Assembly (NCBI GenBank): GCA_964508345.1
Contig: CAZDTK010000002.1
Location: 7,389 to 71,388 of the forward strand
Length of the DNA stretch: 64,000 nt
Source of the DNA: an uncultured Actinomycetes bacterium
GTDB lineage: Bacteria; Chloroflexota; Dormibacteria; Aeolococcales; Aeolococcaceae
Direction: 5' to 3'
Shown: in pieces, positions 7,315 through 57,965 of the stretch
How the letters are laid out: the number at the start of each line of letters is the position of its first letter
Position numbering within the stretch: the stretch's first letter is position 1
Translations under genes and position numbers: made by a program
Notes under the pieces: generated by a model
Told to the model about the DNA's origin: nothing
The model's database searches: none
Seen by the model: the letters and a program-made list of their open reading frames with translations, nothing else

Positions 7315-7513
7315 CTAGCTACACGATCTCCATGAGGCCCGGCCGGTTGCGACCGGGCACTGCGGATGAGATACGCCGACGGATCGGGCGCCACGGAGAC
7401 CGCTGGGAGCGGCACCATCCCCTTCGGGAGGGGCCGACCCTGCCTCCGCTCGCCCCTCGGGGCCGGCGAGGCCCGAGAAGCTATCCCATGCTCCGTTCCT
7501 CCTCAGTCCTCCT

Positions 7514-8614
7514 CTAGGTGGTGCTTATCGGTTGACGCGGCCGCGGGCCGCCGGTGGGTGCATCGGTGTTTGCCAGCGGCTCCGCGCCGTCCTCGACGCG
7601 CCGCTGGGCGGGGTCCACGTGGAGCCAGCAGCTGGCGGCGTGGCCGGCCGCGACGCTCACGCTCGGGGGAGCCTTGGCACTGCAGATCGCCATGGCGTGG
7701 GGGCAACGGGGGTGGAAGCGGCAGCCGCTCGGCGGGGCGATGAGGCTGGGCGGGGCGCCGCTGCCGGCCAGGCTCGGCGGCTCGAGCCGATCCGGGTCGG
7801 GGGCGGCGGAGAGGAGCAGCTGCGTGTAGGGGTGCGCCGGGTTGTCGGTCAAGCGGGCGCTCGGCGCCACCTCCACCACCTGGCCCGCATACATCACGCA
7901 GATGGTGTCGGCGAGGTAGCGCGCCGAGGCGATGTCGTGGGTGACGTAGAGGATGGCCAGGTGCTCACGGTCGCGCAGGTCGGCGAGCAGGTTGAGCAGG
8001 CCGAGGCGGATCGAGACGTCGAGCATCGAGACCGGCTCGTCGGCGAGCAGCACCCGGGGCTGGGCCGCCAGGGCGCGGGCGATGGCGACGCGCTGGCGCT
8101 GACCGCCGGAGAGCTCGTGCGGGAACTTCGGGCTGTACTGCTCGGCCGGGTCGAGGTGGACGCGGTGGAGCAGCTCGGCGATGGCGGTGTCCGGATCCTC
8201 GCCGTGCAGGCCGTGGATCTTGAGCGGCCGGATGAGGGTGTAGCGGACCCGGTGGATGGGGTTGAGCGAGGCGAACGGGTCCTGGAAGACCATCTGGACC
8301 TGGCGCGCGTAGCTGCGCGGCCGCCCCTTCGGCGCCGGCTCGCCGTCGAGCAGGACCTCGCCCTTGTCCGGGTTGATAATCTTGGCAAGCATGCGGGCGA
8401 CCGTGGTCTTGCCAGAGCCGCTCTCCCCGACCAGGGCGGTCACGGTCCCGGCGGCCAGGGCGACGGACACCCTGTCCACGGCGAAAAGGCGTGCCTCCCC
8501 CGAGAACAGGCCCCTGCCGCGGCGGACCGAGAAGTACTTGGTGATCTCGCGCCCCTCGAGCACGGGGCGCACGGCCGCGGGATCGGTCGGGGTCTGCAGC
8601 GCGCCGGCGCTCAT
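7514..8614 (-). CDS. ABC transporter ATP-binding protein (OppF/DppF-like)
   Basis: Walker [10 protein letters not shown], signature [15 protein letters not shown], Walker B LLADEP. C-terminal oligopeptide-type extension with a Cys cluster. Confidence 0.9.
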
Positions 8615-9768
8615 TTGGAGATCCTCCGGCCCGAGGACGGCAGGGCGCCCAGTCGCAGCGCCCCGGCGCCCGGATCGGGAAGGGCCAGCTCGGCCGGAAC
8701 GGTGGCGTCGCCGGAGTGCAGCCAGCAGGCCGCCTCCCGGCCGGAGCCGTCGAGGCGGGTGAGCAGAGGAACCTCCTTGCGGCAGCGCTCCATCGCCCAG
8801 GGGCAGCGGGGGTGGAAGGCGCAGCCGGACGGCAGCGCCCGGAGGTCGGGCGGCGACCCGGGGATCCCCTCCATCGGCAGGCGTTCCCCGTGCATCGGCG
8901 GGAAGCAGTGGAGCAGGCCGTGGGTGTAGGGAACCCGGGGAGCCCGGAAGAGCGAGGTCGCCGGCGCGCGCTCCATCAGCCGGCCGGCGTACATGACCAC
9001 GATCTCGTCGGCGAGCTCGACCAGCAGGGAGAGGTCGTGGGTGATGAAGAGGGCGGCGAATCCGAGCCGGTCGCGCAGCCCCATCAGCTCCTCGAGGATC
9101 TCCCGCTGGGTCACCACGTCGAGGGCCGTTGTCGGCTCGTCCAGGATCATGACCTGGGGCTCCAGGGCGAGAGCCATGGCGATCATCGCCCGCTGGCGCA
9201 TACCCCCGGAGAGCTCGTGGGAGTAGCTGCGCAGACGGTCCGCGGTCATCCCGACCATCTCCAGGAGCTGGCCCGCCTTCTCCCAGCGCTCCGCCGATGA
9301 GAGCTGGGGACGGTGGACCTTCAGCATGTCGTCGAACTGGGCACCGATCGAGATGACGGGGTTGAGGGCGTTGAGCGCGCTCTGGAAGACGACCGAGATC
9401 TCCGACCAGCGCACCTTGCGCAGCTCCGCCTCATCCGCCCGCAGCAGGTCCACGGTCTCCCGCGCGCCACTGCCGCTCGTAGGCTTGGAGTGGAAGAGCA
9501 CCTCTCCTGACGTGATCACACCGGGGGCACGGAGCAGCCGGATCGCGGCCATCGCCAGGGTGGACTTGCCGCTGCCGCTCTCTCCGGCGAGCCCCAGAAC
9601 CTGGCCCCTGTGGAGCACCAGGTCACAGTCCACCACCGCATGCACGGCCTCGGTACCGAAGCCGTAGTCGACGCTCAGGTCGTGGATCTCCAGCACAGGT
9701 TCGGCCTGGCTGATCGACCGCGTCTCGGAGACGAGCGGAGGCGAGGCTGGGCGCGGGCTCAGGGTCAT
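8611..9768 (-). CDS. ABC transporter ATP-binding protein (OppD/DppD-like)
   Basis: Walker [35 protein letters not shown]. The real start is MTLSPRP, which overlaps the upstream permease stop (ATGA). The listed ORF is N-terminally over-extended. Confidence 0.85.
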
Positions 9769-24025: not shown

Positions 24026-24904
24026 GTGACAGCCTCGGCGGGAGACGCGCGGGAACCGGTGGCCGCGACCGGCGAGTTCGACCTCCGGGTCGCCGGTGGA
24101 AGGTTCCATGCCCGGCGCTTCGGAGCGCCGGACGACCCGCTCGTGATCTGCCTCCCGGGGCTCTCCGCCAACCTGGCCGGCTTCGACTACGTCGCCGAGC
24201 GGGTCGCCGGCGACGGGCTCCAGTTGGTGGCGGTCGATCTGCGCGGAAGGGGGCGGAGTGAGCTCACTCCTCTGGGTACCTACGGCTGGCCCGCCCACGC
24301 TCGCGACTGCCTCGATCTGGCCAGTGCGCTGGGCGCGGACCGCTTCAGCGTCGTCGGCCAGTCGATGGGGGGAGCGGTGGCGATGGAGGCTGCCGCGCTG
24401 GCGGGGGCTCGGATCCGCCGCCTCGTCCTGATCGACATCTGCGGCGACCCCGATTCCTCCACGGTCCCGCTGATCAGGGCCGCGGTGGAGCGCCTGGGCA
24501 CCGTCCACCCTTCGCTCGAGGGCTACCTGGCCGCGGTGCGGGGCCTGGGAACGATCCGGCCCTGGAGCGAGTACTGGGAACGCTACTTCGAATACGAGCT
24601 GGAGCCGGTGGCGGGCGGCGTGCGCGCGCGCAGCGATCGCGGAGCGGTGCTGGAGGATCTCACCTACGGGGAGGAGCACAGCGCCCACGACCTGTGGCCC
24701 CGGCTGACGATGCCGGTGCTGCTCCTGCGCGCCACCCAGGAGCTGCAGCCGGGCGCGGGGCACATCGTCCCGGTGGCGGAGCGCGATCGCTTCACGGGTG
24801 AGGTGCCCGGGGTGCGCGTGGTGGAGGTCGACGTCAACCACTACGGGATCAACGCCCACCGCCAGAGTGCCGCGGCCATTCGGGAGTTCCTGACCCAGGC
24901 CTGA
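24026..24904 (+). CDS. Alpha/beta-fold hydrolase
   Basis: 292 aa. Nucleophile elbow GQSMGG. Abhydrolase-like layout. Confidence 0.8.
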   Translation: MTASAGDAREPVAATGEFDLRVAGGRFHARRFGAPDDPLVICLPGLSANLAGFDYVAERVAGDGLQLVAVDLRGRGRSELTPLGTYGWPAHARDCLDLASALGADRFSVVGQSMGGAVAMEAAALAGARIRRLVLIDICGDPDSSTVPLIRAAVERLGTVHPSLEGYLAAVRGLGTIRPWSEYWERYFEYELEPVAGGVRARSDRGAVLEDLTYGEEHSAHDLWPRLTMPVLLLRATQELQPGAGHIVPVAERDRFTGEVPGVRVVEVDVNHYGINAHRQSAAAIREFLTQA

Positions 24905-24987
24905 GTCCGGTTTCGGGGAGGGGCGGGAGCGGCCGGCTCCGTGCCCGGGGCCGCGGGCTCCTGGCTTGAGTATCCTTGCCGATCGAT

Positions 24988-25064
24988 CCCAGGGTAGCCA
25001 AGCTGGTCAAGGCAACGGTCTGTAAAACCGTGTATCGCTGGTTCGAGTCCAGCCCCTGGGACCA
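24988..25064 (+). tRNA. tRNA-Tyr (anticodon GUA), archaeal/eukaryal-like class I structure with a C1:G72 first pair and a 5-nt variable loop
   Basis: Hand-folded cloverleaf. Acceptor CCCAGGG/CCCTGGG, D-arm GCC-AAGCTGGTCAA-GGC, anticodon stem ACGGT/ACCGT with loop CTGTAAA (U33, G34 U35 A36, A37), variable GTATC, T-arm GCTGG-TTCGAGT-CCAGC, discriminator A, encoded CCA. Bacterial tRNA-Tyr normally has a long variable arm and G1:C72. Confidence 0.75.
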
Positions 25065-25123
25065 CTCGCCCCCGCGTGCCGCACCGCGGTCCCCCGAGCC
25101 ATGGAGGCATCCCGGCCCCCGCC

Positions 25124-26278
25124 ATGACCCCCTCCCCCACCGCCGCCGAGATCGACCGCCGGGCGGCGCTCATCGAGCGCAACCTCGCCGAGCTGCTCAC
25201 CCATGAGGAGCTCAGCGGACTGCTGGCGGGCGGTGAGCCGCTCCGCCACTACATCGGCTATGAGATCTCGGGGCGCGTGCACCTCGGCGGCGGCCTGGTG
25301 GCCATGGCCAAGGTTCGCGACTTCCAGGCGGCCGGGGTCGACTGCTCCGTGCTGCTCGCCGACTGGCACACCTGGATCAACGACAAGCTCGGCGGCGACC
25401 GCGATCGCATCCGCCGCCTCGCTCTCTCCTACTACGGGGAGGCGATGCGGGCGTCGCTGCTCTGCGTGGACGGTGACCCGGCGGCGCTCCGTCTGGTACT
25501 GGCCTCGGACGTCTACGCGGACCCCGCCCGCGACTACTGGGCCACCGTCATCGAGGTGAGCAAGCACACGTCGGTGGCCCGCATGCAGCGCAGCATCACC
25601 ATCCTCGGCCGCAGGGAGGGTGAGCAGCACGACTTCGCCAAGCTCATCTACCCGGCCATGCAGGCGGCCGACATCTTCGCCCTCGGGGTGCACATCGCCC
25701 ACGCCGGGATGGACCAGCGCAAGGCCCACGTGGTCGCGCGCGACGTCGCCACCAGGATGCGGATCAATCCACTCCGCAACGCCGCCGGCACCCCCGTCAA
25801 GCCCCTGGCGGCCCACCACCCGCTGCTGACCGGCCTGCTCAAGCCGGACCGCTGGCCGGTGCCGCCGGAGGAGCGCGCCGAGGCGCTCGCGGCCATGAAG
25901 ATGAGCAAGTCGAAGCCGCGCTCCGCGGTCTTCATCCACGACTCCCCCGACGAGATCAGGGCCAAGCTGCGCTCCGCCTTCTGCCCTCCCGGGGAGGTGG
26001 AGCTGAACCCGGTGATCGACTGGATCGAGAAGCTCTGCTTCGGTCTCGGGGACAGCGAGCTGAGGGTCGCGCGCAGGCCGGAGAACGGAGGTCCGGTCAC
26101 CTTCTTCTCGATCCAGGAGGTGCGCGACGCCTACGCCTCGGGCGCCCTCCACCCCATGGATGCCAAGAGTGCCCTGGCCGACCGGTTGATCGATCGCTTG
26201 GAGCCGGCCCGTGCGCACTTCGCCGACCCGGAGCGGGCGGCGGCGCTGGCGGAGATGGAGGCGCTCACCGCCGCCTGA
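25124..26278 (+). CDS. tyrS: Tyrosyl-tRNA synthetase, archaeal/eukaryal type (class Ic)
   Basis: 384 aa from the ATG at 25124, with GGAGG 16 nt upstream. Co-linear with M. jannaschii TyrRS: YIGYEISGRVHLGG matches YIGFEPSGKIHLGH; IYPAMQAADIFALGV matches IYPIMQVNDIHYLGV; KMSKSK is intact; DSPDEIRAKLRSAFCPPGEVELNP matches [24 protein letters not shown]; the C-terminal HPMDAKSALADRLIDRLEP matches HPMDLKNAVAEELIKILEP. The Tyr-OH binding residues equivalent to Y32 and D158 are conserved. Confidence 0.85.
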   Translation: MTPSPTAAEIDRRAALIERNLAELLTHEELSGLLAGGEPLRHYIGYEISGRVHLGGGLVAMAKVRDFQAAGVDCSVLLADWHTWINDKLGGDRDRIRRLALSYYGEAMRASLLCVDGDPAALRLVLASDVYADPARDYWATVIEVSKHTSVARMQRSITILGRREGEQHDFAKLIYPAMQAADIFALGVHIAHAGMDQRKAHVVARDVATRMRINPLRNAAGTPVKPLAAHHPLLTGLLKPDRWPVPPEERAEALAAMKMSKSKPRSAVFIHDSPDEIRAKLRSAFCPPGEVELNPVIDWIEKLCFGLGDSELRVARRPENGGPVTFFSIQEVRDAYASGALHPMDAKSALADRLIDRLEPARAHFADPERAAALAEMEALTAA

Positions 26279-26317
26279 GCGGCGCGCGGCTCGGCCGGGG
26301 CACCACGGCCCGACCGC

Positions 26318-26614
26318 TCAGTGGTCGTCCTCGGCGGGGCGGCGCTGGGCGATGCGGTCGCGAAGCGCGTCCTCCATCTCGCCCGAGCTGCCACCCTCGC
26401 GGCGCAGCCAGAAGGGGATCTTCTCGCCCCGCTTCTCGGCCTCGGCGGCCCGCCGCTCCGCCTCCAGGCTGCGCCGCAGGGTGGCGTCCACCGCCGCCTC
26501 CAGCGTGGCCCCTCCGGCGGTCAGCCCCGGGACCAGGTCGGCCGCGATGACCACCGTGTTGGGCGGTGGGGGCGGTGGCGTCGCGGAGCCCAGAAGGCGT
26601 CCAAAGAAGGACAC
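26318..26614 (-). CDS. Hypothetical small protein (98 aa)
   Basis: ORF antisense to the otsA upstream region. GTG start and no clear SD. Composition is moderately protein-like (FWLRREGGSSGEMEDALRDRIAQRR). Weak call. Confidence 0.25.
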   Translation of the reverse strand: MSFFGRLLGSATPPPPPPNTVVIAADLVPGLTAGGATLEAAVDATLRRSLEAERRAAEAEKRGEKIPFWLRREGGSSGEMEDALRDRIAQRRPAEDDH

Positions 26615-43212: not shown

Positions 43213-44517
43213 TCACCCTCCGTAGATGAAGCCCTCGACGTCGTTGAGGGTGGTCACCTGGCGGGAGTCGATGTCTCCCGGGACCTCGTCGAAGTTCGCC
43301 TCGTCCACGTAGAAGTCGGTGGGACTGACGACGGCCACCACGTAGGCGACGTGGCCGTACTCGCTGTAGCCGTTGTACGGACCCCAGACGACGATGGCCC
43401 CGGGCGCGGGCGTGGATCCGGTCGAGTACCCCTGGGCCTGGGCGTTGCCGAGCCACTCGTCGGCGTTGCCCCACCAGGTCACCTCGACGAGCGATGCCAC
43501 ATACCAGGTGCACTGGCCCCAGGGGAAGGAGTCCGGGATGTCCCCGAATGCGAAGGGGCAGAGCGCGTAGCCGCAGCTCCCACCGCCACCACCGCCTGCC
43601 GCAGCCGCCGCGGCGGCTGCTGCCGCCGCTTCCGCGGCCGCCCGCTCCTCCGCCTGCACGGTGGCGATCTGGCTGAGCAGGGACTGCTGCTGGTCGATGA
43701 TGCCGGTGGCCTGGGCGTCCAGCGACGCGGCCTGAGCCTTGAGCTGGGCCTCCTGCCCCTGAAGCTGGGTCTCGAGGGACTCGAGCTGGGACTCGGCCTG
43801 CGCGGCCTGGGCGAGCTGGGCCTGCTGGGTCTGCTGGAGCGTGGCGAGCCGTTGCTCGTCGGCCTTGACCTCGCCGATGAGCTGCTGGAACTGCTGGCTC
43901 ACCGCGGTGGCCGACTCGAGCTTCTCCATGAGCGCCTCGACGCTCTGGCTGTCCACCAGCCCGGCGACCACGCCCGTCCCGCCCGCCGTGTAGATGACCA
44001 CCATCACCTGGGTGAGCTCCGACTTGTCGGTATTGAGATGGGCCGTGTCCACCTGGATGGCCTGGGCGGTCTGAGCCAGGGCGAGGTTGATCTGGTCGAT
44101 CTGAGCCTGGGTCTGCGCGACCTTGGTCTGGGTGCTGTCGATCTGCTGCTGGACCGCGGCGGCCTGGGCGTCCGCGGCGGCCTCGCTGCCCTGCAGAGTC
44201 TGGAGCTGGCCACCGAGCGAGCTGTACTGCTGCTGGAGCGAGCCGATCTGGTCGGTGTATGAATCGGCGAGGCGGTCTGGCGGCAGGGCCACCCGGTAGG
44301 ACGGCGGGGTGGCAGCGGCGAGCGCTCCGATCGCGAGGACGGAGATGACGAGTCTGCGGGTGAGGCGAGAGGTGGAGCGCACGTCCGTTATCTCTGGACC
44401 GGTGTCGGGGGCGGAGCATACCAGCGCCCCAGCGACCCGCAACGGCGCCTTCAGCGATTCGTCACGCGCTCGTGACGCGTCCTCCAGACCCGCCGGCCCG
44501 CTCGGCGTATGACGCAC
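43213..44517 (-). CDS. Secreted coiled-coil protein with a C-terminal CHAP domain (peptidoglycan amidase/endopeptidase)
   Basis: Signal-peptide-like RRLVISVLAIGALAAA. Long Gln/Ala-rich coiled-coil. Poly-Ala/Gly linker. CHAP Cys/His context (GQCTWYV ... GHVAYV). The start codon is uncertain. Confidence 0.7.
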   Translation of the reverse strand: MRHTPSGPAGLEDASRARDESLKAPLRVAGALVCSAPDTGPEITDVRSTSRLTRRLVISVLAIGALAAATPPSYRVALPPDRLADSYTDQIGSLQQQYSSLGGQLQTLQGSEAAADAQAAAVQQQIDSTQTKVAQTQAQIDQINLALAQTAQAIQVDTAHLNTDKSELTQVMVVIYTAGGTGVVAGLVDSQSVEALMEKLESATAVSQQFQQLIGEVKADEQRLATLQQTQQAQLAQAAQAESQLESLETQLQGQEAQLKAQAASLDAQATGIIDQQQSLLSQIATVQAEERAAAEAAAAAAAAAAAGGGGGGSCGYALCPFAFGDIPDSFPWGQCTWYVASLVEVTWWGNADEWLGNAQAQGYSTGSTPAPGAIVVWGPYNGYSEYGHVAYVVAVVSPTDFYVDEANFDEVPGDIDSRQVTTLNDVEGFIYGG

Positions 44518-44599
44518 CGACGCAGCCGGGCGGTCGTGTCGGCCCTGGTCAATGTGTAGAGTTGGCCGAGATCACGCGGCGGGGCACGCAGATGGAGGG

Positions 44600-52776: not shown

Positions 52777-54489
52777 CTAGCCGAGGCCGGTCGCCCCGAC
52801 CACCGCGGCGACCAGATCGTCGCGCACCCAGAGGATCTCGGAGCCGGACTGCTCCACCGCCTGGTAGCCGGATGCGAGCACGGGGTTGATGTCCGGGTAC
52901 GCCTGGCGGGCCGAACCCTCGGTGATGATCAGCTGGGGCTGGAGCTCGCCGACCTTCTGGGCCACCTGCCCGTCGAAGCCGAGCAGCACCTCGTCGTTGT
53001 AGATCGGAGGCGTCGGCAGCACCAGCTGGAGCTGGTTGTCGTCGTAGAGCCAGGCGTCCGACGACCAGACGACCGCCGAGCTGCCGTCGAGGCTGTGGGT
53101 GCTGATCCAGGCGGAGATCTGGCTGTCCTCGGGGAAGCGATAGTCGAACTGGTCCTGGTAGGCGGCCAGCGACTGGCCGCGCATCAGCGTGGTGACGGCG
53201 CCGCCGTAGTAGAAGCCGAGACTGTGGCCGTACTGGGCGTAGATCGGGGGCCAGTCCATGCCGACCACCGAGGCGCCCACCGCGGTGGCGGCCGTCGCGG
53301 CGATGAGCCCAGCCCCGGCCAGGCGGCGCGAGAGCGTGGCGCCCGCCGGCCAGCGAAGGCGCAGGCTGCTGACCGCCAGGGCAGCGGGCGCGATGGAGGG
53401 CACGAGGTAGTGGGGGTACTCCTGGCGGGCGAGGGCCGGGATCATGAGAGCCGCCGCCGCCCAGACCCAGAACGCCCAGATCGGGCTGCGGTCGCGGCGA
53501 TGGAACCAGGCCGCGATCAGGATGACGGCGAGCACCGTGGCGCCGACCGCCAAGCGGAGCAGGAGCCCGCCCTGGGTGGTGGTCTGACCGGGGGCGGTCT
53601 GAGCCCCCGAGGCGTACTGCAGCCAGAAGCCGACCAGGGCGTAGCCGACCCTGCCGGCGCCGGCCGTGATCATGGCGGGCACCAGCCACACGGCGGTGGC
53701 GCCGGCCACGGTCGCCGCGTACACGGCGACCCGCCGCCAGCTCGCCCGCCCCGCCAGCGCCAGGATCAGGCCGAAGGCGCAGGTCTCGGCGAGGGCGGTC
53801 TGCTGGTAGGCGACCGCCACCGCCGCCAGCAGCCCCACCGCGGCCGGCCAGAGCGGCCAGCGGCGGGAGTCGGGGGCGGCGACCCGGGTGATCAGGAGGG
53901 CCCCCGCCCAGGTGAGCGGGGCGATGAGCAGGCCCTCGGGGAGGAGCAGCTCGGCGTCGAAGATCGGCAGCCCGAGCAGGATCGCGGTGAGCAGCAGGGC
54001 GGCCACGGTCCGGCGCCGCCCCAGCAGCCGGCTGCCGGCATAGGCGACCGCCAGCAGGGTCGTGAAGCCGGCGAGGAGCGGGAGGACGTGGAGGGCGGCC
54101 TCGCTGGTCCCCAGCGTCTGGATCACGAGCGCCACCGTCCAGATGTGGAGGGGCGGCTTGTTGGTCCAGATCTGGGAGTAGAGGACCTGGCCCCGGAGCA
54201 ATGACCGCGCGGTGGCAACATAGCCGGCCTCGTCGGTGTACCAGTGCGGCTCCAGGAACGCCGGGACACGGAGCAGGGCGAAGAGGGCGAGCGGTCCGCC
54301 CAGCCAGAGGCCCCGGCGGAGGCGGTAGACGCGAGCGGAGGACGCCGCCCCGCCGGGCAGCCCCCCCACCGCCGCCGCCATCCGCATCCTCCTCACCGGG
54401 GCCGCTGCGGCCTCGCGCACCCCGGGTCCGCCGGGTGAAAGCCCCAATCTAGCGTCGCGTAGCTTCCCCCGGCAACCTTGCGCGGGCAT
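52777..54489 (-). CDS. GT-C membrane glycosyltransferase (PMT_2 / ArnT-like, GT39/GT83 family)
   Basis: About 11 TM helices plus a C-terminal periplasmic domain. N-terminal loop with the HWYTDEAGY (DE-containing) motif. Start uncertain. Confidence 0.55.
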   Translation of the reverse strand: MPAQGCRGKLRDARLGLSPGGPGVREAAAAPVRRMRMAAAVGGLPGGAASSARVYRLRRGLWLGGPLALFALLRVPAFLEPHWYTDEAGYVATARSLLRGQVLYSQIWTNKPPLHIWTVALVIQTLGTSEAALHVLPLLAGFTTLLAVAYAGSRLLGRRRTVAALLLTAILLGLPIFDAELLLPEGLLIAPLTWAGALLITRVAAPDSRRWPLWPAAVGLLAAVAVAYQQTALAETCAFGLILALAGRASWRRVAVYAATVAGATAVWLVPAMITAGAGRVGYALVGFWLQYASGAQTAPGQTTTQGGLLLRLAVGATVLAVILIAAWFHRRDRSPIWAFWVWAAAALMIPALARQEYPHYLVPSIAPAALAVSSLRLRWPAGATLSRRLAGAGLIAATAATAVGASVVGMDWPPIYAQYGHSLGFYYGGAVTTLMRGQSLAAYQDQFDYRFPEDSQISAWISTHSLDGSSAVVWSSDAWLYDDNQLQLVLPTPPIYNDEVLLGFDGQVAQKVGELQPQLIITEGSARQAYPDINPVLASGYQAVEQSGSEILWVRDDLVAAVVGATGLG

Positions 54490-54504
54490 TAACCGGCCGC
54501 CGAT

Positions 54505-56040
54505 GTGTCATCGTCCCACCCCGTGGTCGTCGCGCCGGAGATCGATCCGCCCCCCGCCACCCCTCGGAAGGTCCCCTGGCCGCCCCGCTTCACCCTCGGC
54601 GGGGTGGTGCTGGGCGCGGCCCTCACGGTGATCCTGGTCGTCCTCTGCCGCCGGGTCGGCGACCCCGACTTCTGGTGGCACATAGAGACGGGGAGCTGGA
54701 TCATCAACCACGGCGCCCTTCCCAGCCACGAGCTGTTCACCTACACGGCCTCCAACCGGGCCTGGGCCGACCAGGAGTGGGGCAGCGAGGTGCTCGGTGA
54801 CCTGATCTTCCGGGCCGGCGGCTTCCTGGCCTTCAGCCTCGCCTACACGGCGGTCACCTGGATCGGCTTCTGGTTCATCTGGCGCCGCATCGCCATCGAG
54901 CGGGTGCCCGCCCTGATCGCCGGTGCATGCCTGGTCCTGGCCGCGGCGGCCGGGGTCGAGGTCTGGGGCCCGCGCTCGCAGATGATCAGCTTCGCGTTCA
55001 CCTGCCTCACCCTCTACTGGGTCGAGACCTACCTCCGGGACCGCAGCCGCGCCGTCTACCTCATGCCGCTCGTCATGGTGGTGTGGGCGAATCTCCACGG
55101 CGGCTTCGTCTACGGGCTCGCCGTGCTCGGGCTCGCCGCGTTCGCTGAGACCGTGCTCTGGGTCACCTCACCCGAGGACCCGGCTCACCGACGCCGCTCG
55201 CTCCGCCTCTGGGCGGTGCTCGTCGCCTCCGGGATCGCGGGGCTGATCAACCCGCTCACCATCCGCGCCTACCTGGCCGCCATCGAGACCCAGACCAGCG
55301 GCGTCCAGCAGAGCTTCATCGCCGAGTGGCACTCCCCGAGCTTCCACTCGCTGGGCGAGCTCTTCCTTGAGCTCATGCTCCTGGCGGTCGTCTTCGCGAT
55401 GGCCTGGCGGCGGCCCCGGCTCTGGGATGCGCTGCTCACCGTGGTCGGCATCTATGCCGCGCTCTCGGCGGTGCGCAACGCCCCCCTGGCCGCCGCGGCG
55501 CTCACGCCCATGCTGGCCTGGGCTTTCGCGGGCTTCTGGGAGCGGCACCAATGGCAGGAGCGGGTCAGCGCGTGGATCCAGCGCCGGCGCTCCGACCTCA
55601 TGGTCCTGGCGACGCTGGGCGCGTTCCTGGTCGCGGTGGGGACGGCCGGCTTCGCCGCCAACACCCTGAGCAGCCAGACCGCGAGCACCGATGCCAACTT
55701 CCCGGTGGGGGCCGCCAACTGGCTGGCGTCGCATCCGACCGTGGGGACGCGGATGTTCAACGCCTACGACTGGGGCGGCTACCTCATCTACCGCTTCTAT
55801 CCGGACCCCAGTCGCGCCGTCTTCATCTACGGAGAGGCGACCGAGCTGGGCAACCAGCTGCTCCAAGACGTCAGCGACGTCGAGAACTCCGAAACCGACT
55901 GGCAGCACATCCTCGACGAGTACGGCGTCAACTACGTCGTCGAGCGCACCGACTCCGCGCTCAGCATGGCGCTCTCCGTCGACCCCCAGTGGAAGCAGGT
56001 CTACCGGGACTCGTTCGCGGTGATCTTCGTCAAGCAGTAG
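54505..56040 (+). CDS. Polytopic membrane protein, probable GT-C-fold glycosyl/arabinosyl-type transferase
   Basis: 511 aa. First periplasmic loop carries DPDFWWH. Long C-terminal soluble domain. No definitive family assignment. Confidence 0.45.
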   Translation: MSSSHPVVVAPEIDPPPATPRKVPWPPRFTLGGVVLGAALTVILVVLCRRVGDPDFWWHIETGSWIINHGALPSHELFTYTASNRAWADQEWGSEVLGDLIFRAGGFLAFSLAYTAVTWIGFWFIWRRIAIERVPALIAGACLVLAAAAGVEVWGPRSQMISFAFTCLTLYWVETYLRDRSRAVYLMPLVMVVWANLHGGFVYGLAVLGLAAFAETVLWVTSPEDPAHRRRSLRLWAVLVASGIAGLINPLTIRAYLAAIETQTSGVQQSFIAEWHSPSFHSLGELFLELMLLAVVFAMAWRRPRLWDALLTVVGIYAALSAVRNAPLAAAALTPMLAWAFAGFWERHQWQERVSAWIQRRRSDLMVLATLGAFLVAVGTAGFAANTLSSQTASTDANFPVGAANWLASHPTVGTRMFNAYDWGGYLIYRFYPDPSRAVFIYGEATELGNQLLQDVSDVENSETDWQHILDEYGVNYVVERTDSALSMALSVDPQWKQVYRDSFAVIFVKQ

Positions 56041-57793
56041 GCGCCGCGGGGGGCGTCGCCGGCGCCGCCTCGGGGCGGGCCTCGGGCGGCACGCCCCTCC
56101 CCTCCTCCTCGCGCCGGCGCTTCTCCCGGCGGCTGAAGTAGAGGCGCAGGGCGGCGGTGCCGCCGCCGAAGAGCACGAAGAGCAGCACCGCGGTGACCAC
56201 CGGCGCGCCGCCCGGATGGGCGGCGGTGGACTGGGGGCGCAGCTCGACCTCGATGAGGCCGAAGACGGCGACCGCGAAGGTCGCCGCCCAGGCCGCCCGG
56301 CTCCACTGCAACAGGGTGCCGCCGGGGAGGAACGCGAGCGGCATCAGCGAGATCACCTGGCCGACCAGGCCACCGACGAAGACGGCCGCCAGGAGGTCGG
56401 CGAGCAGGACGATGCCGAAGGGGGCGCCGGGCACCCGGGCGGACTGCCCGACCGGAATCCAGATCAGCCAGGCGGCGACCGCCACCAGGAGGCCGGCGAT
56501 GGCCCCGAGCGCGACGGTGTGACCCTGCTCTCGCTTGGCGAGCGTCCCCTGGAAGGCCAGCCCGGCGATCACCCCGTAGAGGTAGCCCGGCGCGAAGGAG
56601 CTGAGCCGGGAGACCAGCACGCACGCGGCCGCGACGGCGAGGCCGGCGGGGAGGGCATGGAGGCGCGGCTCGACATGCTGGTGGCGCAGCCGCCGGTAGA
56701 CGGCGCCCACCATCCCGCCGACGAGGACGCCGGCGAGGATGGCCAGCACCACCGCCAGGTAGGTGGCGGCGGAGCGAAGGTTGAGGCCGAAGTCGGGATC
56801 GTTGAGGCTGCCGAGGAGCGCCCCCACCAGGACCACGGCGGCGAAGGCGCCGAAGCGCAGCAGCCCCCCCGCCTCGCGCTCTGCCTCGCGGCGGAAGCGT
56901 CGCAGCCAGCGCAGACGGCGCAGCGTCATGTCGCGGATGTCGTCGTAGTTGTCCTCGAAGGTGCGGTTGAAGAGCTGGGCCGGGAAGGTGATGAAGAGGA
57001 TCACCCCCAGGGTGATGGCGGCCCCGATCAGGGTGTGGAGAGGGGACCCGAAGGCCTGGGCGGGGGTGGCGAGGCCCGAGGAGAACGACGACACGTCGGG
57101 GTTGCCGGGTGCGGCCGTGACCGCCGGTGCGGCGCAGGCCAGGTTGGTCGAGGCCGGGAAGCTGGCACCCACCGGCACCGCGAGCAGGGTGAGGTTCTCC
57201 GCGCCCGTGTTGACGCCGACACTGCCGTCACACGCCCAACCGTCGGGCAGCGACTCCGTTCCCGCCACCACGATGGCGTGCCAGTCCCCGGCCGAACCCT
57301 CGGTCGCCTCCAGCACGGTCAGAGTGAGGGTGTCACGACCCAGGTTCGGCGGAGGATGGCACGACGGCAGGTCGGGCCCGCCATAGCCGCCCGAGACGGT
57401 GGTGCCGGAGAAGGAGCTCCCAGCGTGCACCATCACGGTCGAGGTGTCCCAGTACCAGTCCACGGTGTTGTCGACGAGTTGGAAGGATGCACCCGGCGAC
57501 GGGGATGTCATCGCCGCGGTGCAAACGCCGGCCGCGCTGCACGTCGAGGAGAGCAGCACCGTCTCGAGCGCGGTGGTGCCGACCGGGACGCTGCTCCGGA
57601 ATGTGTAGCCTGCGGTGACGGTCGAGGGCGCGACCGTGATCCGCAAGTGCCACTCACCGCTCAGAGTGGCGGCCTGGACGTCGCCGCAGTCGGCCAGGGC
57701 GGTCACCGCAGTCGCCAGCGCGACCGCGCCGAGGGCGGCGGCGGCGATCGGCACGCGCAGGCGATGGACCAGGGATCTCGGCGGGCTCTTCAC
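56030..57793 (-). CDS. Hypothetical protein: secreted N-terminal domain + C-terminal polytopic membrane domain
   Basis: 587 aa. Signal peptide. Cys-containing Ser/Thr-rich extracellular half. About 6-8 TM helices in the C-terminal half. Confidence 0.45.
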   Translation of the reverse strand: MKSPPRSLVHRLRVPIAAAALGAVALATAVTALADCGDVQAATLSGEWHLRITVAPSTVTAGYTFRSSVPVGTTALETVLLSSTCSAAGVCTAAMTSPSPGASFQLVDNTVDWYWDTSTVMVHAGSSFSGTTVSGGYGGPDLPSCHPPPNLGRDTLTLTVLEATEGSAGDWHAIVVAGTESLPDGWACDGSVGVNTGAENLTLLAVPVGASFPASTNLACAAPAVTAAPGNPDVSSFSSGLATPAQAFGSPLHTLIGAAITLGVILFITFPAQLFNRTFEDNYDDIRDMTLRRLRWLRRFRREAEREAGGLLRFGAFAAVVLVGALLGSLNDPDFGLNLRSAATYLAVVLAILAGVLVGGMVGAVYRRLRHQHVEPRLHALPAGLAVAAACVLVSRLSSFAPGYLYGVIAGLAFQGTLAKREQGHTVALGAIAGLLVAVAAWLIWIPVGQSARVPGAPFGIVLLADLLAAVFVGGLVGQVISLMPLAFLPGGTLLQWSRAAWAATFAVAVFGLIEVELRPQSTAAHPGGAPVVTAVLLFVLFGGGTAALRLYFSRREKRRREEEGRGVPPEARPEAAPATPPAAPTA

Positions 57794-57965
57794 GCTCTCC
57801 CCCCGTCAGACGCGACCGCCGGAGCGGTTGGGGACGAGTATGCCACGGGCTCCGGCCAGCAACCACCGGCGGCGGCGTAACCTCTGCAGCGGCGCGGCCG
57901 CTGCCGGGCCGGATGCCCGTCACGGCCGGAGCGGGCATCGCCGAGGTCCGGCCGGAGGAAAGCGA

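Follow-up and report, generated by a model that had tools for sequence, protein, structure and literature searches.

A 64,000-nucleotide stretch of contig CAZDTK010000002.1 (assembly GCA_964508345.1), referred to here as the window, carries adjacent genes for a tRNA-Tyr(GUA) and a tyrosyl-tRNA synthetase (TyrRS). Both genes are intact, archaeal in type, matched to each other, and tightly linked in the window lineage, with a host-like composition and conservation across the phylum. We consider it likely that the pair is the housekeeping tyrosine system of a Dormibacterota soil bacterium, in which it would have replaced the bacterial Tyr system long ago and been inherited vertically since. We favor an old replacement over an additional, code-expanding pair because the residues of the tyrosine pocket and those reading the first base pair of the tRNA are invariant, the anticodon is an ordinary GUA, the genomic context is native, and homologues occur phylum wide. 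The tRNA-Tyr/TyrRS pair does not imply a change in the genetic code. The two genes are these:

24988 to 25064, forward strand: class I tRNA-Tyr(GUA), from ARAGORN, the Rfam tRNA model, and a covariation-supported cloverleaf.
25124 to 26278, forward strand: archaeal-type TyrRS of 384 amino acids (aa), from NF006330, PF00579, and identity to the Pyrococcus horikoshii TyrRS.

An earlier, sequence-only reading of this DNA had described a class I tRNA-Tyr(GUA) with a 5-nucleotide (nt) variable loop, C1:G72, and A73, encoded together with a matching archaeal-type TyrRS in a bacterial genome, and the tRNA calls, family models, and conserved residues all bear this out. ARAGORN called tRNA-Tyr(gta) at 24988 to 25064 on the forward strand as one of two tRNAs in the window, and the Rfam tRNA model (gathering score, 29) matched it end to end at 67.3 bits (E = 1.7e-12). 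Read directly, the gene is CCCAGGG-UA-GCCA-AGCUGGUCA-AGGC-A-ACGGU-CUGUAAA-ACCGU-GUAUC-GCUGG-UUCGAGU-CCAGC-CCCUGGG-A-CCA. The acceptor stem (CCCAGGG/CCCUGGG) gives a C1:G72 first pair, the discriminator base is A73, the variable loop is GUAUC (5 nt, with no long variable arm), the anticodon loop is CUGUAAA (anticodon GUA, then A36-A37-A38), the D stem has 3 bp with A13.A22, and CCA is encoded at 25062 to 25064. The combination of C1:G72, A73, GUA, and a 5-nt variable loop makes the window tRNA-Tyr a class I molecule that carries the archaeal/eukaryal identity set. Bacterial tRNA-Tyr is usually of class II, with G1:C72 and a long variable arm (PMC5370408).

Relatives were taken from a scan of one genome per GTDB species, which found 509; all counts of loci below come from the best 80 of these 509, with individual loci given as L numbers. 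Across 12 distinct class I tRNA-Tyr sequences, 95.6% of cells in the cloverleaf were paired and compensatory double changes were present at 12 cloverleaf pairs. None of 500 shuffled controls was as good, and the signal was lost once pairing partners were slid. C1:G72, C2:G71, and A73 were constant in this set, as were GUA, C1:G72, A73, and the short variable loop in 11 distinct bacterial class I copies. Both isotype and anticodon were confirmed, and the conserved pairing indicates that the window tRNA-Tyr is a functional cloverleaf and not a pseudogene. Every tRNA-Tyr copy examined had the anticodon GUA, with no suppressor or reassigned anticodon among them.

A near-identical class I C1:G72 tRNA-Tyr lies upstream of the TyrRS homologue at 19 Dormibacterota-clade loci, several of them otherwise labeled, and the same class I type lies 5' of the homologue at two Chloroflexota loci (L067 and L075) and one Peribacteria locus (L077). 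C1:G72 tRNAs that retain the long variable arm were seen in WWE3 (L071) and at L079. Signals on the origin of the tRNA are mixed, since the 3-bp D stem, A37, and encoded CCA are bacterial-like and the T arm and variable loop resemble those of Methanocaldococcus jannaschii. In M. jannaschii tRNA-Tyr, position 37 is G and the D stem has 4 bp; the window tRNA departs from it toward a more bacterial form in its A37, 3-bp D stem, and encoded CCA.

The archaeal-type TyrRS that the earlier reading placed just downstream was likewise recovered, at a measured distance of 59 nt. Its open reading frame (ORF) runs from an ATG at 25124 to a stop at 26278, and public gene calls include an identical 384-aa protein. 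The model NF006330 (PRK08560, tyrosine--tRNA ligase), which we take to be that of the archaeal-type enzyme, matched residues 10 to 375 at 384.7 bits (model positions 3 to 337 of 342; cutoff, 220 bits). The bacterial tyrS model TIGR00234 reached only 99 bits, below its cutoff of 113.8 bits, and aligned with residues 12 to 209 only. The sole Pfam match was PF00579 (tRNA-synt_1b; residues 38 to 359 of 384), and the bacterial S4-like C-terminal domain was not found in a Pfam scan or in the TIGR00234 alignment, which stops at residue 209. The best solved relatives were P. horikoshii TyrRS (2cyc; E = 6e-119), 7fg6, and Aeropyrum pernix TyrRS (2cya), followed by the M. jannaschii enzyme (1j1u; 4e-45), and the bacterial Thermus thermophilus TyrRS (1h3e) scored 4e-6 over the N-terminal half only. 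As had been proposed, the best matches of the protein are archaeal-type TyrRS and not bacterial TrpRS or TyrRS. In MAFFT alignments, the window enzyme was 53% identical to P. horikoshii TyrRS over 355 aligned residues and 39% identical to M. jannaschii (Mj) TyrRS, the latter sequence reproducing the classical residue numbering. The peptide first quoted for the M. jannaschii comparison, DSPDEIRAKLRSAFCPPGEVELNP, is present in the TyrRS.

Class I motifs are in place, with a HIGH-like HLGG starting at H53 and KMSKS at residues 259 to 263. The tyrosine pocket comprises Y43, Y176, Q180, D183, and Q198, equivalent to Mj Tyr32, Tyr151, Gln155, Asp158, and Gln173. Both the pocket and KMSKS are unvarying in 67 of 67 bacterial and 11 DPANN homologues, which extends the earlier observation that KMSKS and the tyrosine-binding Tyr and Asp are conserved; among the signature and pocket residues, only the fourth HIGH position varies. 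Since these residues are constant in all 67 bacterial homologues, the pocket is, as judged from the alignment, a canonical tyrosine pocket that has not been respecified. The tyrosine-contacting residues are the same as those of canonical TyrRS, and no altered amino acid pocket was seen. On the tRNA-reading side, D346 (Mj Asp286) is constant in 67 of 67 bacterial sequences and H343 (Mj His283) in 66 of 67, the two Mj residues presumably being the readers of anticodon base G34. R199, K200, and R156 are constant in the 67 bacterial and 11 DPANN homologues; their counterparts Mj Arg174, Lys175, and Arg132 have been assigned to recognition of C1:G72 (PMC1934993). Given that the pocket, KMSKS, and the residues reading C1:G72 and G34 are all conserved, the window enzyme looks like a fully competent, tyrosine-specific archaeal-type TyrRS with a tRNA-reading surface that matches the adjacent tRNA.

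The Asn321 codon of the TyrRS gene (26084 to 26086) aligns with Mj Phe261, a residue that we take to stack on anticodon base G34. Of the Dormibacterota sequences, 43 of 47 have Asn in this column, as do 11 of the 16 from Chloroflexota (five others have His), unlike the P. horikoshii enzyme and all 11 DPANN sequences, which have Phe. The replacement of Phe261 by Asn could reflect adaptation to a bacterial host in which G34 carries the queuosine modification. Taken together with the tRNA features (A36-A37-A38, the 3-bp D stem, and the encoded CCA), it suggests adaptation to bacterial tRNA processing and modification.

The best 80 relatives include about 50 Dormibacterota-clade loci with 56 to 91% TyrRS identity (47 in the tree), 17 Chloroflexota loci (16 in the tree; Anaerolineae, Aggregatilineales, and Dehalococcoidia among them), a few loci of the Candidate Phyla Radiation (CPR; WWE3 L071 and Peribacteria L077), and 11 DPANN archaea with 48 to 54% identity. 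Identity is 77 to 91% in related species and 56 to 68% elsewhere in Dormibacterota. The closest homologues (77 to 91%) come from metagenome-assembled genomes (MAGs) labeled Candidatus Dormibacteria or Dormiibacterota, including Ca. Changshengia (Aeolococcales). For this reason the host, first taken for actinobacterial-like, is instead Candidatus Dormibacterota (formerly AD3), closest to Ca. Changshengia. Dormibacterota-type TyrRS and tRNA-Tyr also occur in MAGs labeled Binatia, Saccharimonadales, Actinomycetes, and Chloroflexia (L013, L024, L035, L011, and L007/L008/L010), which are probably mislabeled or misbinned Dormibacterota.

Labels this inconsistent, and the known cross-contamination of DPANN and CPR bins (Mukai et al. 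2017, PMC5370408), raise the question of whether archaeal DNA was joined to a bacterial contig during assembly or binning, or whether the window itself is archaeal. We regard the chance of such an artefact as negligible. Independent JGI and ENA assemblies contain 12 contigs, the longest 432 kb, on which an identical TyrRS protein is encoded among the same neighbors. The arrangement recurs on long-read contigs that reach 2.7 Mb and on complete 4.2- to 4.4-Mb Chloroflexota chromosomes, which account for 4 of the 17 Chloroflexota loci. Composition is uniform across the junctions, and the surrounding genes are typically bacterial (GGDEF/EAL proteins, methyl-accepting chemotaxis proteins [MCPs], LacI, CHAP, and an LpxL-like acyltransferase).

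In a neighbor-joining tree of TyrRS (100 bootstraps), the Dormibacterota formed one clade (bootstrap, 69; 85 without L046) within a clade of Dormibacterota plus Chloroflexota (77%), and the DPANN sequences formed a clade of their own (80%). Such a distribution, with its clades, is what one would expect if the gene were essential and inherited vertically. The bacterial clade stood beside the DPANN clade, with 20 to 43% support at the deep nodes. The nearest archaeal TyrRS are those of DPANN (48 to 54% identity) and P. horikoshii (53%), and the Dormibacterota and Chloroflexota enzymes may derive from DPANN-like archaea.

A different origin is conceivable, in which the archaeal-type Tyr system is an old character shared by a superclade of CPR, Chloroflexota, and Dormibacterota through descent. 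The system might even be a relic of a prebacterial identity set. In most Chloroflexota and CPR the bacterial type would later have overwritten it, and its present function would be the same as under replacement. We think this quite unlikely. In its favor, the three bacterial groups known to have the system are exactly those that rooted bacterial phylogenies join as sisters (Coleman et al., bioRxiv 10.1101/2020.07.15.205187; PMC12329446). The WWE3 sequence L071 is placed next to the Dormibacterota-plus-Chloroflexota clade, as descent would have it, but with a bootstrap of only 43%, and the CPR or unlabeled bacterial sequences L077, L057, and L079 fall with or outside the DPANN sequences. Chloroflexota sequences are split into three separate clades, and most cultured Chloroflexota, as far as is known, use a bacterial TyrRS, both of which count against descent. 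Several independent transfers into CPR were inferred by Mukai et al. (2017, PMC5370408). A broader version of the replacement scenario holds that the pair is the sole Tyr system of all Dormibacterota and several Chloroflexota and that, together with the CPR cases, it goes back to a single ancient replacement in the ancestor of the superclade, later often reverted; we rate this as unlikely. If true, a single ancient replacement would be a rare genomic change supporting the grouping of CPR, Chloroflexota, and Dormibacterota, as well as a natural long-term experiment in the swapping of tRNA identity sets.

The setting of the pair is that of a resident chromosomal locus. Window GC is 71%, and GC at third codon positions (GC3) is 0.91 in the TyrRS ORF and 0.83 to 0.95 in its neighbors. 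Genes near the locus encode a SulP transporter, a family 4 glycosyltransferase (GT4), the LpxL-like acyltransferase, inositol-1-phosphate synthase (Ino1), an ArsR-type regulator, an alpha/beta hydrolase, trehalose-6-phosphate synthase (OtsA), MerR, and a response regulator. The order LpxL-like, Ino1, ArsR, tRNA-Tyr, TyrRS, small ORF, and OtsA is preserved in L001 to L011. No integrase, transposase, or phage module was seen near the pair in the window. Carriage by a virus or mobile element was also considered and rejected: a viral collection held no relatives of the TyrRS, and a plasmid collection held only distant TyrRS genes of haloarchaeal megaplasmids (31 to 33% identity). Because GC3 is like that of the neighbors, related MAGs are syntenic, and neither an integrase nor close relatives in viruses or plasmids were found, the pair is judged to be native chromosomal DNA.

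Recent horizontal acquisition, or carriage as mobile-element cargo specific to the window genome, could be suspected on the grounds that tRNA genes are common integration sites and that gene order around the pair differs slightly among close relatives, which lack the hydrolase between ArsR and the tRNA and have extra genes between tyrS and the small ORF. We consider it very improbable, and the sequence comparisons effectively refute it. GC and GC3 match the host, in agreement with the composition check suggested from the sequence alone; the pair is syntenic in related species (77 to 91%) and occurs phylum wide at 56 to 68%; and the mobile-element genes and close viral or plasmid relatives that cargo would predict are missing from the locus and the collections searched.

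Some of these small differences merit description in their own right. In the window, the alpha/beta-hydrolase gene (24026 to 24904, forward strand) lies between ArsR and tRNA-Tyr. It is missing from that position in L001 and L004 to L009, where the tRNA directly follows ArsR, and a similar alpha/beta hydrolase adjoins trpS in L018; its insertion looks like a local rearrangement and not a mobile element. Relatives carry a TrkA-type K+ channel and a SIMPL protein as small differences in gene order. The small ORF convergent with tyrS (26318 to 26614, reverse strand) has 98 aa as listed and 78 aa in public calls. It has no Pfam match, and its identity is 61 to 82% in related Dormibacterota and about 43% in L015 and L046.

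The sequence-only reading had left two options: either the lineage has replaced the bacterial Tyr system or it carries a second, naturally orthogonal pair. Replacement is now much better supported by the phylum-wide and syntenic distribution, host-like composition, canonical pocket, and GUA anticodon. A second pair, in a genome that encodes a normal bacterial TyrRS and a class II tRNA-Tyr at some other site, is in our estimate distinctly improbable. Such a pair could be a backup for stress, antibiotic resistance, or regulation, as proposed for the duplicated TrpRS-A in CPR. Since there is no cross-reaction between archaeal and bacterial Tyr pairs (PMC1934993), coexistence is biochemically possible, and operons of archaeal-type TrpRS-A do coexist with bacterial TrpRS (Mukai et al. 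2017, PMC5370408). With an ordinary GUA anticodon and a canonical pocket, however, a second pair would be purely redundant, and redundant essential genes are rarely retained phylum wide, yet this pair is retained. Unlike the situation for TrpRS-A, a bacterial tyrS is linked to the pair in 0 of 80 loci. Public TyrRS entries labeled Dormibacteria are all of archaeal type, although they were retrieved with the window TyrRS, a query that would miss a bacterial-type enzyme.

The only class Ic neighbor of the pair is trpS. In many Dormibacterota, a gene of about 338 codons with the motifs GIQP..LHLGNY and KMSKS lies directly downstream of the archaeal-type tyrS and is convergent with it. It was considered as a possible bacterial TyrRS and rejected, as its length and motifs (the basis of the call, with no family scan) are those of a bacterial-type TrpRS. 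It is listed here for two loci:

L018, 4117 to 5133, reverse strand: bacterial-type trpS, from length and motifs.
L039, 4692 to 5894, reverse strand: bacterial-type trpS, from length and motifs.

The gene has the same position in L019 to L036, L044, and L049 to L051. An archaeal-type TyrRS and a bacterial-type TrpRS thus stand side by side within one genome, and the convergent bacterial-type trpS fits a housekeeping role for the archaeal-type tyrS.

Several points weigh against a sole, replacing housekeeping pair. Neither the 64-kb window nor the DNA around the 80 homologues (at most 3 kb on each side, or about 7 kb per locus) contains a second TyrRS or tRNA-Tyr, so the absence of a bacterial pair is established for these regions only. 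About half of the Dormibacterota loci (L016, L018 to L036, and others) have no tRNA-Tyr within 3 kb of tyrS. The tree is a neighbor-joining tree with moderate support and does not settle the number and direction of transfers. A simple sigma-70 consensus promoter scan found nothing, a terminator scan found no terminator-like site, and the case that the window enzyme charges the window tRNA with tyrosine is built from sequence.

The control region of the pair includes two further features:

24971 to 24976, forward strand: putative -10 hexamer TATCCT, from conservation only.
25065 to 25123, forward strand: spacer of 59 nt between tRNA and TyrRS, from sequence and alignment.

The hexamer is part of a conserved block, cTTGAG-TATCCT-tgCCGATCGAT (24966 to 24987), which ends at tRNA position +1. 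TATCCT stands at a fixed distance of about 11 nt from the tRNA 5' end in L001 to L008, L010, and L013, with TATTCT in L063; in the more distant L009, L011, and L012, the hexamer is TATGCT or TATACT at an unchanged distance. This conservation points to a putative -10 element that would give a very short tRNA leader. In the spacer, GGAGG occurs at 25103 to 25107, 16 nt ahead of the TyrRS ATG. The spacer sequence (GTGCTACGGT...GAGGCACC) is kept among close relatives (L001 2925 to 2997 and equivalents), but the window copy is without about 15 nt that include a proximal GAGG, which leaves GGAGG 16 nt from the ATG. A spacer hairpin or attenuator was considered and rejected, the covariation term of the consensus fold being unfavorable (+1.06) and the fold z-score being 0.06. 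A T-box or other leader 5' of tyrS was rejected as well, as Rfam at the gathering threshold gave only the two tRNAs in the window.

Under replacement, the following sequence of events can be proposed. A Dormibacterota ancestor, with or in exchange with some Chloroflexota, would have acquired an archaeal-type TyrRS of the long Pyrococcus/DPANN-like form, and the bacterial TyrRS and its class II G1:C72 tRNA-Tyr would have been displaced, probably leaving no bacterial-type Tyr pair elsewhere in the genome. UAY codons would now be decoded by the class I tRNA-Tyr(GUA) with C1:G72 and A73. The tRNA and tyrS, which share one direction, may be cotranscribed, probably from a promoter just 5' of the tRNA, and RNase P together with 3' trimming to the encoded CCA would release the tRNA. 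A dimeric class Ic enzyme would then bind tyrosine through Tyr43, Tyr176, Gln180, Asp183, and Gln198, read C1:G72 through Arg199, Lys200, and Arg156 and G34 through His343 and Asp346, and charge the window tRNA with tyrosine. It would do so without the S4-like domain that the bacterial TyrRS uses on the long variable arm. Iraha et al. (2010, PMC2887954; also cited in PMC5370408) reported that an archaeal Tyr pair can take over the function of the native one in Escherichia coli, which shows that an archaeal-type Tyr arrangement is viable in a bacterium.

Archaeal-type Tyr pairs are not unprecedented in bacteria, as Mukai, Reynolds, Crnkovic, and Soll (2017, Life 7:8, PMC5370408) found that Parcubacteria, Microgenomates, Dojkabacteria, and Katanobacteria have an archaea/eukarya-type TyrRS together with a C1-G72 tRNA-Tyr and claimed the first evidence of such genes in bacteria. 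As in those CPR cases, the host of the window pair is a bacterium, its archaeal-type TyrRS has DPANN sequences as relatives, and its tRNA-Tyr has C1:G72. Many of the CPR tRNAs keep the bacterial variable arm (PMC5370408), a pattern also seen here in L071 and L079, unlike the window tRNA, which is fully class I and not a variable-arm tRNA with a flipped first pair. The hosts also differ, with Dormibacterota being free-living and high-GC with a large genome, and the trait is phylum wide and not confined to scattered lineages. Mukai et al. (2017, PMC5370408) do not mention Chloroflexi, AD3, or Dormibacterota, a 2023 survey of tRNA identity is silent on exceptions among bacteria, and we found no literature linking Dormibacterota or Chloroflexota to an archaeal-type TyrRS. 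The phenomenon is the same as in CPR but in new phyla; neither these lineages nor the spread through a whole phylum appears to have been reported before.

The window enzyme shares its fold family, catalytic and tRNA-reading residues, and tRNA identity set with the solved archaeal TyrRS (2cyc, 2cya, and 1j1u) and its length class with 2cyc. With canonical TyrS/TyrZ (TIGR00234), it would share the reaction, a Rossmann-fold class Ic core, and a GUA anticodon, but it scores below the TIGR00234 cutoff and is without the S4-like C-terminal domain, and its tRNA has C1:G72 and no long variable arm. Unlike code-expanding pairs of the PylRS/tRNA-Pyl kind, the window pair has no suppressor anticodon and no altered pocket. 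The closest engineered parallel is the E. coli of Iraha et al. (PMC2887954), which translates Tyr codons with an archaeal-type pair; that system is synthetic and recent, unlike the window pair, which is natural and would be ancient and coevolved with its host.

Elsewhere in the window, genes farther from the pair encode ABC transporters, LacI, MCPs, GGDEF/EAL proteins, CHAP, citrate synthase, and a 2-oxoacid:ferredoxin oxidoreductase. Three large adjacent ORFs of 576, 515, and 591 aa at 52777 to 57805, beside a GT87 glycosyltransferase, have no Pfam match at E < 1e-5, but their very high GC3 (0.93 to 0.95) makes it likely that the genes are real. A Holin-X-like protein (PF07332; 30240 to 30686, forward strand) and the CHAP-domain protein (43213 to 44571, reverse strand) were noted, with no other phage genes seen around them. 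The region of about 2.2 kb between an SBP_bac_5 gene and ABC permeases (7315 to 9510) may be degraded or otherwise unusual, since it has only short high-GC3 ORFs of 98 to 150 aa, one of them (8313 to 8762) without a Pfam match.

The TyrRS/tRNA-Tyr pair is a textbook identity rule separating Bacteria from Archaea and Eukarya, and the M. jannaschii TyrRS-tRNA-Tyr pair, the standard orthogonal pair of genetic code expansion, rests on it. If a sole archaeal-type system with a fully class I tRNA were shown for a whole free-living phylum and for parts of Chloroflexota, the exception to this rule, for which the only published bacterial cases are in CPR (PMC5370408), would reach beyond reduced symbionts and include ordinary bacteria of the soil. 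Nature would then offer archaeal-type pairs with a history of coevolution with bacterial RNase P, EF-Tu, ribosomes, and modification enzymes, and Dormibacterota-type pairs may make better orthogonal pairs for E. coli. The Dormibacterota and Chloroflexota carriers would in turn be hosts in which bacterial Tyr pairs are orthogonal, and the replacement could provide a rare-event marker for a deep relationship among CPR, Chloroflexota, and Dormibacterota.

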